Shown here in pieces: positions 20,417 through 24,613 of a stretch of 64,000 bases of DNA. The notes below the pieces were generated by a model that saw nothing but the letters and a program-made list of their open reading frames with translations, ran no database searches and was not told the DNA's origin. The first letter of the stretch is position 1. Each line of letters opens with the position of its first letter. The stretch comes from an uncultured Gammaproteobacteria bacterium (GTDB taxonomy: Bacteria > Patescibacteriota > Patescibacteriia > Magasanikbacterales > UBA922): the NCBI GenBank assembly GCA_964394405.1, contig CAYMVY010000002.1, positions 128,092 through 192,091 of the forward strand. The letters are read 5' to 3'. Both the position numbers and the translations under genes were made by a program.

Positions 20417-20995
20417 TTATTTGATTGTTTTTAAAATATCCTCTACAAACTTCTTATCCTTTTTGTCATCCATTTTTTCTCCCAATACTTTTTCCATTGC
20501 AGTCACCACAATTTCTACTGTTTCTTTTCTTAGACTTGCCCGCATTTCTGTTTTTTCGACTTCAATATTTTTCTTTGCTTGCAAAACTAGCGCTTCTACC
20601 TCATCTTTGGTCTTCTGTTTCATCGTCTCCTGCACTCGTGTAGCTTCTTCTTGCGCGCCTGCAATAATCGCATTTGCTTCTTTTTTTGCTTCTTCCAATT
20701 TTTCTTGGAATTTTACTTCACTCATTTTGAGATTTGTTTCGACTTCTTTTGCACGATCAAGACTTTCATCAATAATATTTTTTCTTTCTTCCATCTTTTT
20801 TGTTAATGGTTTTAGAATCAAAAACCACAAAATTAGAGCAACAATCGCAAAATTGAGTAATTGAAATAAAAATAGCGGACCATTGATGCCAAGGCTCGCC
20901 AAAATTCCCACATCTTCTGTAGGAAGAGTGGTCTGTGATTGTGTCTCTTCTGTAACTTTTGCTAATTTCATAAAACCGTGGGACAAATAAATCAA
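20417..20995 (-). CDS. atpF: Fo ATP synthase b subunit (copy 1)
   Basis: 192 aa. One N-terminal TM, then a long charged coiled coil. Confidence 0.8.
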   Translation of the reverse strand: MIYLSHGFMKLAKVTEETQSQTTLPTEDVGILASLGINGPLFLFQLLNFAIVALILWFLILKPLTKKMEERKNIIDESLDRAKEVETNLKMSEVKFQEKLEEAKKEANAIIAGAQEEATRVQETMKQKTKDEVEALVLQAKKNIEVEKTEMRASLRKETVEIVVTAMEKVLGEKMDDKKDKKFVEDILKTIK

Positions 20996-21030
20996 TGTGG
21001 TATCCCGACATCGTCAGGATACCAGTCGAA

Positions 21031-21261
21031 CTATTTGAGAGTGAATACAACTACAAGTGCGTAAATCGCGATAGCTTCCGCGAATGCAGCACCGAGCAAC
21101 ATTGGAACGAACAATTTTCCAGCTCCTTCTGGATTTCGTCCAATTGATTCCATTGCTTTTGATACAATTTTGCCGATTGCAAGCGCTGGGATCATACCAC
21201 CGATTGCGATAGTGAAAGCTTTTGCCATCACCACAATTGACTCATGACTTAGACCTTCCAT
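21031..21261 (-). CDS. atpE: Fo ATP synthase c subunit (copy 1, H+-type signature)
   Basis: 76 aa. Two-helix hairpin with GRNPE loop and carboxylate in AFAEAIAIY. No Ser/Thr after the Glu and no Gln/Glu at the helix-1 position. Confidence 0.9.
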
Positions 21262-21353
21262 ATGTGTACCTTTCTTAGAGAAACTGTATACCGTGCGAGG
21301 GGGAAATGGGGGTGATTAACCTCGCGGTGCAGTCTCTGATTAAAGAATAATAT

Positions 21354-21377
21354 GGTAGAAAAATATTTTCTTCTACC
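21354..21377 (-). other. Hairpin within the atpB-atpE spacer (ggtagaa aaatatt ttcttctacc)
   Basis: 7-8 bp inverted repeat inside the 127-nt intra-operon spacer. A possible processing or attenuation element. Confidence 0.3.
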
Positions 21378-21388
21378 AAGAATACTCT

Positions 21389-22174
21389 CTAATGAGCTTC
21401 AGCGCCATGTGGTGCCTGACTATTCACGGTCAAATATACCAAGGTAAGCATTGCAAATACGCTTGCCTGAATCAACCCAACTAATAGCTCAAGTAACATA
21501 AATGGCGCAGGAACAACAGCGGCAACAAGTGCCGACATTACCGTAATCAAAACTTCTCCTGCAAAAATGTTTCCAAATAAACGAAGTGAAAGAGATAATA
21601 CTTTTGCTGCCTCACTAATGATTTCTAGAATTCCTACCCCAAATTCTATGAGTGCAGTCAAAATTGCCATGGGTCCTTTTGGAATACTTTTAATGACCCC
21701 GCCAATCTGGATAAATTTACCTAAGTGTGTGAATACACCAATAGCGAGAAAAGCATAGACATGGGACGCAATTACTGCAACTAGTGCCATAACAAGCGTA
21801 AGATTCAAATCAGAATTTGCGGGGCGAAGTACCATATTATGCCCGAGCGTAATACTTCCCGTACCAGGTAAAAGACCCAACCAATTGGAAAGTAAAATAA
21901 AAAAGAAGATCGATCCAACTATTGGTAAAAAGCGAATAGTTTTTTTTCGATCTCCTGTGACTTGGTCGAAATATGGGAGTAATAGTTCTAGAATATATTC
22001 AAATCCATTTTGCAATTTTCCTGGTCGCATCAGCACATTACGTTTAATCATGATTCCTACTATCAGTAAAATGATGATTGCAATCCAAACATTCACAACT
22101 GTATTGGTAACCGGAACTGGTCCCATCTGGAACAATACTTCTGGTGCAAGTGTTGGAATGTGGATTTCCGCCAT
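21389..22174 (-). CDS. atpB: Fo ATP synthase a subunit (copy 1)
   Basis: 261 aa. Conserved LSLSLRLFGNIFAGEVL with the essential Arg. Confidence 0.9.
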   Translation of the reverse strand: MAEIHIPTLAPEVLFQMGPVPVTNTVVNVWIAIIILLIVGIMIKRNVLMRPGKLQNGFEYILELLLPYFDQVTGDRKKTIRFLPIVGSIFFFILLSNWLGLLPGTGSITLGHNMVLRPANSDLNLTLVMALVAVIASHVYAFLAIGVFTHLGKFIQIGGVIKSIPKGPMAILTALIEFGVGILEIISEAAKVLSLSLRLFGNIFAGEVLITVMSALVAAVVPAPFMLLELLVGLIQASVFAMLTLVYLTVNSQAPHGAEAH

Positions 22175-22177
22175 ATA

Positions 22178-22613: not shown

Positions 22614-22634
22614 TCTTTACAAAAACCTGACACA

Positions 22635-23147
22635 CTAGGACTTTTGCATGTCAGAAATCAATCGGTTGGTCAGTTGTGTATCAATCGCGTCTGTAACCCC
22701 TTCTCCTAGTACTTTTTCTACGGCACCCACCACTAATTCAGCAGTCTCTTTGCGTAGTTCATATTGCATCTGCTCTTTCTCTGCCGCAATCGTAGTTTTT
22801 GCTTGTGCAACAATTCCTGCCACATCCTCTTTTGCTCTCTGCCGCATACTTTCAGCTAGTACTGATGATTCGGTAACCGCCTGCCCAATAATACTATTTG
22901 CCTGTTTTTTTGCATCTTCAAGTATTTCTTCTGAATTACGCCGTGCCATTGCCACATCCATCTCAGATTTTTTAAAATTTTCTTCTGTTTCTTCTGCCAT
23001 ACGCTTACGATCTTCAATCACTTTTAGTATCGGCACAAAAAATAGACGTTTGAGAATATAAAATACAAGCAAAAAATTAATGAGGTTGAAAAGCGCCATT
23101 TTCCACTCAAATCCTACTTTCCCTAATGTCTCTAGAATATACTCCAT
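22635..23147 (-). CDS. atpF: Fo ATP synthase b subunit (copy 2)
   Basis: 170 aa. N-terminal TM plus charged coiled coil. Paralogous to 20417-20995. Confidence 0.75.
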   Translation of the reverse strand: MEYILETLGKVGFEWKMALFNLINFLLVFYILKRLFFVPILKVIEDRKRMAEETEENFKKSEMDVAMARRNSEEILEDAKKQANSIIGQAVTESSVLAESMRQRAKEDVAGIVAQAKTTIAAEKEQMQYELRKETAELVVGAVEKVLGEGVTDAIDTQLTNRLISDMQKS

Positions 23148-23171
23148 AGTTCGGTGACGTAGCTCAATTTA

Positions 23172-23387
23172 CTAGATAATAAAGAATGCTACGAATGCGT
23201 AAATCGCGGTTGATTCTGCAAGTGCTACGCCGATGATCATTTTGGTGAATAAGCTGTTCTCAACCATTGGATTTCTTCCAATAGCCTCGAAAGCTTTACC
23301 AATAAGATACCCCTCACCTATTGCTGAACCAAACATTGACAAAGTTGCCATCCCCTTTGCAATTAATCGTGCTGCTTCGATTTCCAT
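23172..23387 (-). CDS. atpE: Fo ATP synthase c subunit (copy 2, Na+-binding signature)
   Basis: 71 aa. Helix 1 AIGEGYLIGKAFEAIGRNP and helix 2 VALAESTAIYAFV. The E/ES-T/Y ligand set corresponds to I. tartaricus Q32/E65/S66/T67/Y70. Confidence 0.85.
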   Translation of the reverse strand: MEIEAARLIAKGMATLSMFGSAIGEGYLIGKAFEAIGRNPMVENSLFTKMIIGVALAESTAIYAFVAFFII

Positions 23388-23457
23388 ATAGTTATATTTA
23401 CACTATTAAATTAAATAAAAAACATATTATCACCAATCGAGTAGTCAATTGGTAATA

Positions 23458-24249
23458 TTATGTTTTCTGTTGTTCCTGCGTTGCCACTGCGAGTGTAATG
23501 TATGCAGCTGTCAACGAACCAAACACCATCGCCTGCAATACCCCGACTAGGAGGTTCATTGCAGTCCATGGTGCTGGTACGAGCACTGCAAGTGCTCCTA
23601 GGAATATCGCTGCCAAAACTTCGCCCGCATACATATTTCCAAACAAACGCAACGAAAGGGAGATGACTTTTGCAAATTCTGAAACAATATCCAATAATCC
23701 AATAAAAAAGTCAATAATCGCGAGCATTCCTGCACCAACACCTTTTCTGAAACCTTCAAATATTTCTTTTATTTTCACAAATTTTCCAATGTGTCCAAAT
23801 AATCCAAAATCTCTAATACTCATCACATTTGCGAGTATGACCATCGCGAGCGCGATACTAAATGTCATGTTGAAATCATTGGTAGGGGTGCGGAAAAGCG
23901 AAACCCCATTGTATGTGATTGCCGAGAGACCTGGGATTAGCGTGACGATATTTGAAAAACCCAAGAAAAGAAATAATGCACCAATCAGGGGGAGTAATTT
24001 TTTTGCAAGTTTCTCATTTCCGGTAATTGATGTAAGTAACCCTACAAATACTTCAACAATCTTTTCCACCAATGCTTGGAACGAAGTAGGCACATTGTTT
24101 TTTCTTCTGTATATTGAAAGTGAAATACATAAGAAAAATAACGTAACCATTACCCCCATAAGCATTGCATTGGTAAATTCAAAACTCCCAATCGAGAATA
24201 TCGTCTCTGGGCGAATTGAGATTTGTTCTGAAGGTACTTGCAGAAACAT
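23458..24249 (-). CDS. atpB: Fo ATP synthase a subunit (copy 2)
   Basis: 263 aa. Conserved ISLSLRLFGNMYAGEVL with Arg. Confidence 0.85.
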   Translation of the reverse strand: MFLQVPSEQISIRPETIFSIGSFEFTNAMLMGVMVTLFFLCISLSIYRRKNNVPTSFQALVEKIVEVFVGLLTSITGNEKLAKKLLPLIGALFLFLGFSNIVTLIPGLSAITYNGVSLFRTPTNDFNMTFSIALAMVILANVMSIRDFGLFGHIGKFVKIKEIFEGFRKGVGAGMLAIIDFFIGLLDIVSEFAKVISLSLRLFGNMYAGEVLAAIFLGALAVLVPAPWTAMNLLVGVLQAMVFGSLTAAYITLAVATQEQQKT

Positions 24250-24250
24250 A

Positions 24251-24613
24251 TTACTCTGGTTGTTTTTTTTCTTCTACATCTTTCTCTCCCTGATCAATCG
24301 CCTTGCGCTCTTTTTCAAGCTTAAGATACATTCGGATCACGAGTGTCCATGATAGTATAAATGTGAAAACCAGTGTGAGAACTGAACCTAAGGGGCGCAT
24401 ATTGAATCTGGTATCCAAATACTTACCCAAAAAATACCCCGAAACTGCAGGAATTCCAAAAATAAACAAAATTCGAAGCATCAAAACAAATGTTTTGTGC
24501 TGAAAGGCTTCCCTTTTTTGCTGATTATTTTGTATATCCATATTATTGAAAACCACATAAGCATATACAAAAAATACCATCTCGTCAATGGTATTTTTTG
24601 GTTTATGCACCAT
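24251..24613 (-). CDS. AtpZ/AtpI-like small membrane protein (second copy, divergent)
   Basis: 120 aa. LRILFIFGIPAVSGYFLGKYLDTRFN resembles the ATPase_gene1 GxxLD motif. It heads the second Fo module. Confidence 0.45.
   Translation of the reverse strand: MVHKPKNTIDEMVFFVYAYVVFNNMDIQNNQQKREAFQHKTFVLMLRILFIFGIPAVSGYFLGKYLDTRFNMRPLGSVLTLVFTFILSWTLVIRMYLKLEKERKAIDQGEKDVEEKKQPE

Follow-up and report, generated by a model that had tools for sequence, protein, structure and literature searches.

Can a single F1 sector be served by two complete Fo sectors that carry different ion-binding sites, and how would two such sectors come to stand in one operon? These questions are raised by an ATP synthase (atp) locus of an uncultured groundwater-type bacterium placed by GTDB in the Magasanikbacterales (Patescibacteriota), and by its homologues in Candidatus Magasanikbacteria. 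The locus lies on a stretch of 64,000 nucleotides (assembly GCA_964394405.1, contig CAYMVY010000002.1, positions 128,092 to 192,091), which was analysed whole and is referred to below as the window. The genes run on the minus strand from about 24.6 to 15.6 kb, 3' of cvpA and tatD, in the order I_A–a_A–c_A–b_A and then, after a spacer of 166 nt, I_B–a_B–c_B–b_B–delta–alpha–gamma–beta–epsilon, and they end in a strong terminator. Module A (24541-22635) lies upstream and contains a Na+-type c subunit, while module B (22453-20417) is F1-proximal, abuts atpH and contains an H+-type c subunit. A single delta-alpha-gamma-beta-epsilon set follows module B, and no second F1 was found within the 64-kb window. 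The explanation preferred here, to which a probability of roughly 0.6 is assigned, is that the two modules encode alternative complete Fo sectors sharing the one F1·delta encoded downstream.

Ion-binding sites and integrity of the two modules

The c subunit of module A, c_A (23172-23387, minus strand, 71 aa; PF00137, ATP-synt_C, 3.6e-17), includes MEIEAARLIAKGMATLSMFGSAIGEGYLIGKAFEAIGRNPMVENSLFTKMIIGVALAESTAIYAFVAFFII, with the motifs GEGY in helix 1 and AESTAIY in helix 2. Its alignment with the c subunits of Fusobacterium nucleatum (3ZK1) and Ilyobacter tartaricus (1YCE) was ungapped, and E32, E65, S66, T67 and Y70 were all present, so that the Na+ ligand set proposed in the original prediction survived proper alignment with all five residues. 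The Na+-coordination roles of these c-ring residues are given in PMC3692424, where the two-carboxylate variant of the ring is reported to bind and transport Na+ on crystallographic and biochemical evidence. The full ligand set (Q/E32, E65, S66, T67 as water ligand, Y70 and the backbone carbonyl at 63) was found in c_A and not in c_B. In the same alignments c_B (21031-21261, minus strand, 76 aa; PF00137, 1.3e-15) has Ile32, Ala66 and Ile67 and is therefore without three of the liganding side chains; E65 and Y70 are kept, and helix 2 reads AEAIAIY. By the published ion-type rule, as applied in PMC11738941, the sequence of c_B is of the H+ type, in agreement with the pattern first read from it. 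The motifs quoted in the original prediction were correct, but its copy labels were inverted with respect to its own listing, since the Na+-type c subunit belongs to the first-listed, upstream module.

The essential carboxylate of helix 2 (E65) is present in both c subunits, and the helix-1 glycine motif differs between them (GSAIGEG in c_A, IPALAIG in c_B). Both a subunits have LSLRLFGN in helix 5 (LSLRLFGNM in a_A), which aligns to solved a subunits and contains the essential Arg, as had been predicted. Among the A-type c genes of other Magasanikbacteria, Kuenenbacteria, Nomurabacteria and related Patescibacteria (L003-L019), most showed the full two-carboxylate GEGY/AESTAIY motif; exceptions were found in L024 (Q…TETTAIF) and in L026 and L027 (Q…ESIAIL). 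The distribution of this motif suggests that Na+ coupling is widespread in these lineages of the Candidate Phyla Radiation (CPR).

All eight Fo open reading frames (ORFs) are intact on the minus strand, with no frameshifts, and together with their Pfam matches they bear out the prediction of two complete Fo modules with contrasting ion-site signatures ahead of atpHAGDC. Besides c_A, module A consists of a small AtpI/AtpZ-like membrane protein, I_A (24251-24541, 96 aa; PF09527, 23.2 bits against a cutoff of 26.6), subunit a_A (23458-24249, 263 aa; PF00119, ATP-synt_A, 1.9e-36) and subunit b_A (22635-23147, 170 aa; PF00430, ATP-synt_B, 6.4e-21), the last with a derived C-terminal tail. Homologues of I_A occupy the equivalent position in operons that have only a module of type A (31-47% identity). 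Module B contains, besides c_B, the AtpI/AtpZ-like I_B (22178-22453, 91 aa; PF09527, ATPase_gene1, 2e-09, 37.8 bits), a_B (21389-22174, 261 aa; PF00119, 1.6e-39) and b_B (20417-20971, 184 aa from ATG 20971; PF00430, 5.7e-23). The copy of I_B in the related locus L082 is 80% identical, and a_B has more than 100 homologues in Magasanikbacteria at 70-86% identity. Matches to PF00119, PF00137 and PF00430 were well over the cutoffs for both modules. With the NCBIfam models, both b subunits passed TIGR01144, c_A passed TIGR01260 while c_B scored 39.5 against a cutoff of 43.95, and a_B passed TIGR01131 while a_A scored 94.1 against a cutoff of 102.6.

The F1 set occupies 15680-20414 on the same strand (delta 20031-20414, alpha 18527-20017, gamma 17591-18520, beta 16184-17551, epsilon 15680-16099), and its alpha and beta subunits are 96-97% identical to those of L082, which has only a module of type B. 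It is followed by the operon terminator (15644-15678, minus strand), a 15-bp stem and then a T-run (-24 kcal/mol, z -8.2).

The integrity of the modules was assessed against L002, a locus from a different species and another study that has the same gene order. Proteins of the two loci are 85-97% identical, and synonymous sites are at or near saturation (proportion of synonymous differences, pS, 0.34-0.77). The ratio of nonsynonymous to synonymous substitution rates (dN/dS) was 0.14 for I_A, 0.029 for a_A and 0.014 for c_A in module A, and 0.083 for I_B, 0.090 (0.07-0.10) for a_B, 0.039 for c_B and 0.039 for b_B in module B. For b_A the synonymous sites were too saturated for a ratio (proportion of nonsynonymous differences, pN, 0.149; pS 0.773). 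The values of the Fo genes in both modules are comparable to those of the F1 genes, and ratios of at most 0.14 indicate that both modules are under strong purifying selection. A pseudogenised remnant, one of the outcomes named beforehand as refuting, was ruled out by these ratios and by the lack of frameshifts; the break that seems to split I_A in L002 falls before the real start codon. Because the 1-nt indel in L002 breaks the longer I_A frame and lies upstream of ATG 24541, I_A probably starts at that ATG, and the true starts of I_B and b_B are probably 22453 and 20971.

Ancestry of the two Fo sectors and of the F1

The original prediction described the locus as a tandem duplication, a description that did not hold. 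Identity between the paralogues of modules A and B is 37% for a, 47% for c and 42% for b, no similarity was detectable between I_A and I_B, and the orthologues of each module in other genomes are much closer to it than is its paralogue in the window. In a tree of concatenated a and c subunits, the two modules formed two well-separated clades, and each type is the sole Fo in other Magasanikbacteria. The copies of module A in the window and L002 nested among A-only loci (L004, L005, L006 and L008) with 100% bootstrap, at the end of a long branch, and module B of the window was placed among B-only genomes. An in-situ duplication with later divergence of the ion site is ruled out by the paralogue identities and the trees, by which the tandem is a juxtaposition of two old Fo lineages, through transfer or long retention.

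Operon types were defined from a scan of species-representative genomes and from look-ups of homologues. A-only operons (TatD–I_A–a_A–c_A–b_A–delta…) were found in many Patescibacteria, including Magasanikbacteria (L003-L019, L024-L027), and B-only operons (TatD–…–I_B–a_B–c_B–b_B–delta…) in other Magasanikbacteria (L028, L082-L090, L171, L172), with the TatD-atp synteny common to both. Among the operons examined in this way, the two modules occurred together only in the window and in L002. A search with b_A among 5.8 billion proteins returned only three lineages with this module A, so the tandem state is, over the collections searched, rare. It is confined to a tiny clade made up of the window, L002 and one fragment. 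A scan of metagenome contigs with a_A gave no close relatives, its output being dominated by the generic FGNMYAGE pattern. Several of the Patescibacteria-type atp operons (L002, L006, L009, L012, L025 and L028) are in records titled 'uncultured Gammaproteobacteria' or 'Candidatus Saccharibacteria', labels that are likely wrong.

A tree of the alpha and beta subunits placed the genus of the window as sister to the A-only loci L006, L008 and L025 with 100% bootstrap, and the B-only L084 and L086 further off. By these trees F1 tracks organismal descent, with an Fo type that alternates across the Magasanikbacteria. The sequences imply at least one whole-Fo replacement in this group, or else a long-retained tandem with differential loss. 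The trees fit an ancestral module A kept with F1 and a module B acquired later, and they also fit both modules having been kept from an older tandem. Module A was considered both as the native Fo of the lineage and as an insertion into a B-type operon, and the trees are compatible with either direction. Recent foreign DNA was rejected as a source, as there is no anomaly in GC content (0.388 for module A and 0.389 for module B) or in GC content at third codon positions. The genomic and evolutionary statements made here are held with high confidence.

At the level of the genus, sister genomes were checked as had been proposed: the tandem was found again in L002, and module A was absent from L082 and L087, the loci nearest to the window (trio with 100% bootstrap), to which L002 is the outgroup. 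Module A was also absent from L083, L089 and L171. What stands between tatD and atpI_B differs from genome to genome: module A in the window and in L002, a 587-aa Na_H_Exchanger gene in L082, both TerC and Na_H_Exchanger in L087 and L088, and TerC by itself in L083, L089 and L171. In L084 and L172, which are more distant, the slot is empty. No homologues of that Na+/H+ exchanger (NhaP) or of TerC were found elsewhere in the window or in L002. Exchanger genes were located near atp loci in 4 of 11 B-only, 0 of 24 A-only and 0 of 2 tandem cases (tblastn with two exchanger queries), counts that are phylogenetically non-independent.

The b subunits differ in a way that bears on assembly. The membrane part of b_A is 62-71% identical to the b subunits of A-only operons and 24-33% identical to b_B, and it is the membrane part that tells A from B, while the soluble part does not. 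The C-terminal tail of b has a consensus common to A-only and B-only genomes, GEKMDDKKDKKF[VI]EDILKTIK (mean identity 40-69%), and the tail of b_B matches the clade consensus GEKMDDKKDKKFVEDILKTIK. In the window and L002 the tail of b_A is GEGVTDAIDTQLTNRLISDMQKS, and its last 23 residues are 17-22% identical to all other b tails, while the tail is 74% identical between the two loci. The soluble part of b_A has not converged on that of b_B, its tail being unlike every other b tail. In characterised enzymes, the C-terminal ~21 residues of b contact delta. As judged from these comparisons, the b_A tail has changed and then stayed constrained in a lineage where b_A must coexist with b_B, and the derived tail may reflect an altered docking to the shared delta.

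A proposed shared F1 and the alternatives to it

Each module is preceded by promoter-like DNA. The candidate promoter P_A (24560-24592, minus strand) lies in the spacer between tatD and I_A and reads TTGACG-17-TATGCT (24588-24560; 9 of 12 positions match). A palindrome, ACCAT-N7-ATGGT, spans its -35 region, and 58 of the 60 nt of the block are identical in L002 despite the saturated synonymous sites. The palindrome occurs once in the 64 kb and was absent from the 15 other Magasanikbacteria loci checked. Nor does it occur 5' of the Na+/H+ exchanger genes of the relatives, where it would have pointed to shared regulation. The candidate promoter P_B of module B and F1 (22468-22496, minus strand) reads TTGACA-17-TACACT (10 of 12) and is the best promoter-like match in 15.5-26.2 kb. 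Since the P_B block is conserved 5' of atpI_B in L002 and in the B-only L082, whatever gene stands upstream, it is the B-type operon's own upstream element and was not made by the junction. Between the modules, b_A is followed by a terminator-like hairpin (22579-22615, minus strand) with a perfect 17-bp stem (-21.3 kcal/mol, z -4.5) and then a U-rich stretch; none of 200 shuffled sequences folded as well, and L002 has a comparable A-tract, hairpin and T-tract at the same place. The palindromic terminator and candidate promoter originally reported between the modules were thus recovered, with the promoter-like site conserved in relatives, and together these elements are consistent with two transcription units.

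Strong hairpins also stand in the a-c spacer of module A (23428-23457, minus strand; 13-bp stem, -14.3 kcal/mol, z -3.2) and in the a-c (21353-21378, z -6.5) and c-b (20998-21024, z -4.0) spacers of module B, both also on the minus strand. Such hairpins may act in transcript processing or stability and so set the ratio in which a, c and b are expressed.

In the proposed explanation, module B would be an H+-type Fo behind the P_B element, read together with F1. Module A would be an Fo with a Fusobacterium-type two-carboxylate Na+ c site and its own palindrome-bearing promoter-like element, ending in a strong hairpin. If the host ferments without a respiratory chain, as is generally inferred for CPR bacteria, ATP hydrolysis would be the main activity of the enzyme, with F1Fo-B generating a proton gradient and F1Fo-A either exporting Na+ or generating a sodium gradient. 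The share of F1 between the two would be set by the expression strength of module A. The tandem would join two old Fo lineages that have been replacing one another on a vertically inherited F1 across the Magasanikbacteria, either as a retained intermediate of an Fo swap or as a cassette gained at the variable slot. Hybrid Na+ pumps of Escherichia coli F1 and Propionigenium modestum Fo were reportedly obtained by Laubinger et al. in 1990. The feasibility of sharing is supported by a hybrid F1Fo with a foreign c-ring, which assembles (PMC3692424). The sequences show the gene content, the site residues, the purifying selection, the phylogenetic pattern and the conserved regulatory-looking DNA; from them we infer the coupling ions, the separate transcription, the building of two kinds of F1Fo complex around a single F1, and the physiology. 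For the functional statements, such as Na+ export or a sodium gradient by way of module A, the odds are judged to be even.

Several points weigh against this explanation. The main caution on assembly is that the binding of b_A to the shared delta may, given its tail, be altered or weak. Only about 14 nt lie between the end of the P_B -10 element and the ATG, which leaves little room for a leader. Rings with the Na+ motif can carry H+ at very low Na+. A second F1 or further antiporters are possible elsewhere in the genome, of which only 64 kb was seen. The trees are neighbour-joining trees with a modest number of taxa. Finally, the tandem state maps uncleanly on the genus tree, because module A is missing from L082 and L087, although both are nearer relatives of the window than L002 is, so that losses or recombinational exchange of cassettes must be invoked.

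The best-surviving alternative is that the tandem is a passing stage of Fo replacement, with one module, most likely A, the one that most of the genus lacks, adding little and in the course of being lost. Module A is missing from the closest relatives and from three further loci of the group, its b subunit was found in only three lineages among the 5.8 billion proteins, the branch leading to it is long, and the b_A tail is off consensus. This is nevertheless considered unlikely, as module A shows dN/dS of 0.014-0.14 across saturated synonymous divergence, values level with or below those of module B, the derived tail is conserved at 74% between two species and the promoter-like block is nearly invariant.

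It is quite unlikely that the modules mix in one complex, either in a heteromeric c_A/c_B ring of the kind known from Acetobacterium woodii or through pairing of b_A with b_B in the manner of the cyanobacterial b/b'. Each module has its own a subunit and AtpI/Z-like protein, which would be needless for a simple addition of c or b, and each type is a self-sufficient Fo in other genomes. A mixed Na+/H+ ring at a single a-subunit channel would presumably be poorly coupled. Hetero-oligomeric c rings and b/b' pairs do occur in nature (the A. woodii structure 4BEM is among the matches of c_A, and in-locus duplications of b are reported in PMC4154653), and a derived b_A tail is what a b'-like role would lead one to expect. 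The modules also lie close together in the same orientation, although the hairpin and second promoter-like site separate the two gene sets.

Both Fo sectors could instead be proton-coupled in vivo, with the Na+ motif of c_A irrelevant at ambient Na+ and the modules differing in ring size (ion-to-ATP ratio) or pH optimum. Which ion a Na+-motif ring uses is governed by the ratio of Na+ to H+, as the free-energy discussion in PMC3692424 sets out, and the difference in the helix-1 glycine motif could change ring stoichiometry. Selection on Na+ binding is, however, argued for by the five Na+-site side chains kept in most of the A-type c subunits examined, and a Na+/H+ exchanger stands in the same slot of sister species; this reading is regarded as very unlikely.

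An artefact of assembly or binning that joined an A-type and a B-type Magasanikbacterium is imaginable, the sequence being a metagenome-assembled genome and the two Fo types being found in related organisms whose flanking gene order is the same, but it is scarcely credible in view of the identical arrangement in L001 (a separately assembled Logan contig, possibly from the same reads), the same order in L002, where the junction DNA is conserved at either end of module A, and the identity of only 60-71% between module A and any A-only genome, which leaves no plausible co-occurring donor.

Surrounding features, known systems and significance

The remainder of the 64-kb window is ordinary chromosome, with genes for PBP2, MreBC, tRNA synthetases, a UvrD/AddA-like helicase and transketolase. 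A GC-rich island at 12500-14000 (0.50-0.56 against about 0.40 elsewhere) lies between ABC transporter and FMN reductase genes. Its ORFs of 175-180 aa overlap on both strands (12627-13169, plus; 12645-13172, minus); neither had a Pfam match and the plus-strand ORF had no NCBIfam match. The island may be foreign DNA. Within the F1 part, delta (OSCP) is short, with 126-128 aa in the window, L082-L090 and L171 and 133 aa in the more distant L172, and it matches only positions 62-172 of the 172-position Pfam and TIGR models. The usual N-terminal domain, through which delta binds the N-terminus of alpha, seems to lack roughly its first third. Relatives carry extra ORFs within this part (L087 11821-12906, L089 11666-12274, L171 8950-9333, L172 10398-11249), located between alpha and gamma, between gamma and beta (a gene of the 23S_rRNA_IVP family) or between delta and alpha, and the atp operon of this clade seems unusually tolerant of insertions. 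In L090 (1-5183), about ten consecutive small genes with matches to T4SS_pilin (PF18895) stand upstream of the B-type atp operon.

Among known systems, the Na+ F1Fo enzymes of F. nucleatum (c11 ring, 3ZK1), I. tartaricus and P. modestum have the same c-site residues and the ordinary F-type order, and c_A is exactly the F. nucleatum variant. Those enzymes have one Fo and one F1, whereas here an H+-type Fo stands between the Na+-type Fo, for which Na+ coupling is predicted, and F1.

The original prediction had also pointed to the N-ATPases, a second Na+-motif rotary system found beside an H+ F-ATPase, proposed to expel Na+ and encoded in the order atpDCQRBEFAG (Dibrova, Galperin and Mulkidjanian 2010, PMC2881411). 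The likeness lies in the proposed function, in the Glu of both c helices and in the small membrane protein of PF09527 (AtpQ-type). N-ATPases differ in having their own F1, no delta, a long b, AtpR and a fixed order, and module A has none of these. The NCBIfam models for the alternate F1 (altF1) scored equally for A and B and far below their cutoffs (TIGR03306 65-68 bits, cutoff 302; TIGR03322 39, cutoff 131; TIGR03321 46-52, cutoff 225). No AtpR-like ORF or PF12966 match was found at the locus, delta is present, and b_A and b_B have only 170 and 184 aa. These scores and the F-type anatomy of the operon rule out an N-ATPase origin, so this part of the prediction was abandoned; the relatives of module A are ordinary F-type operons of Patescibacteria.

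An additional Fo with no additional F1 has its closest precedent in Desulfococcus oleovorans, which has ectopic extra a, b and c genes, with a and c grouping with Thermotogae and hinting at transfer (Koumandou and Kossida 2014, PMC4154653). That set is ectopic and not within the operon, no alternation of its Fo type between closely related organisms is known, and no ion-site contrast, conserved regulation or selection was analysed for it in that paper. The several c genes of A. woodii (4BEM, chains of which were among the best structural-database matches of c_A) and the cyanobacterial and alphaproteobacterial b/b' genes are partial analogues of Fo multiplication within a locus, with mixed rotors or stators; there only c or b is multiplied and the products enter one complex, whereas here the whole Fo is doubled, including a and the AtpI/Z-like protein. 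Pairing of H+ and Na+ rotary enzymes is usual when a genome has several ATPases, according to the ProAD survey (PMC11738941), but those cases are separate complete operons, and here one F1 must serve both Fo sectors. In the literature searched, whose coverage was incomplete, no description was found of a double Fo with opposite ion signatures within one operon, nor any statement on how common the Na+ motif is among the c subunits of CPR bacteria.

A broader proposition can be put forward only tentatively, at somewhat less than even odds: that one F1·delta is shared in vivo by two separately regulated Fo motors with different ions, as a natural dual-ion F-ATPase; that Fo sectors act as swappable cassettes, Na+ versus H+, on a vertical F1 at a slot otherwise used by a Na+/H+ antiporter; and that the window is a living intermediate of the switch between Na+ and H+. 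The change between Na+ and H+ coupling in ATP synthases is a long-running question that has usually been framed in terms of point changes in the c-ring. The locus suggests another route, in which the whole Fo is exchanged under a constant F1 by way of a two-Fo stage that selection can maintain. With two stators and two rotors in one operon, it would provide a compact natural test system for the modularity of F1 and Fo, for competition between stators and for ion selectivity. It also bears on the role of ATP synthases in CPR bacteria, organisms without respiratory chains in which that role has been discussed (PMC8080830).

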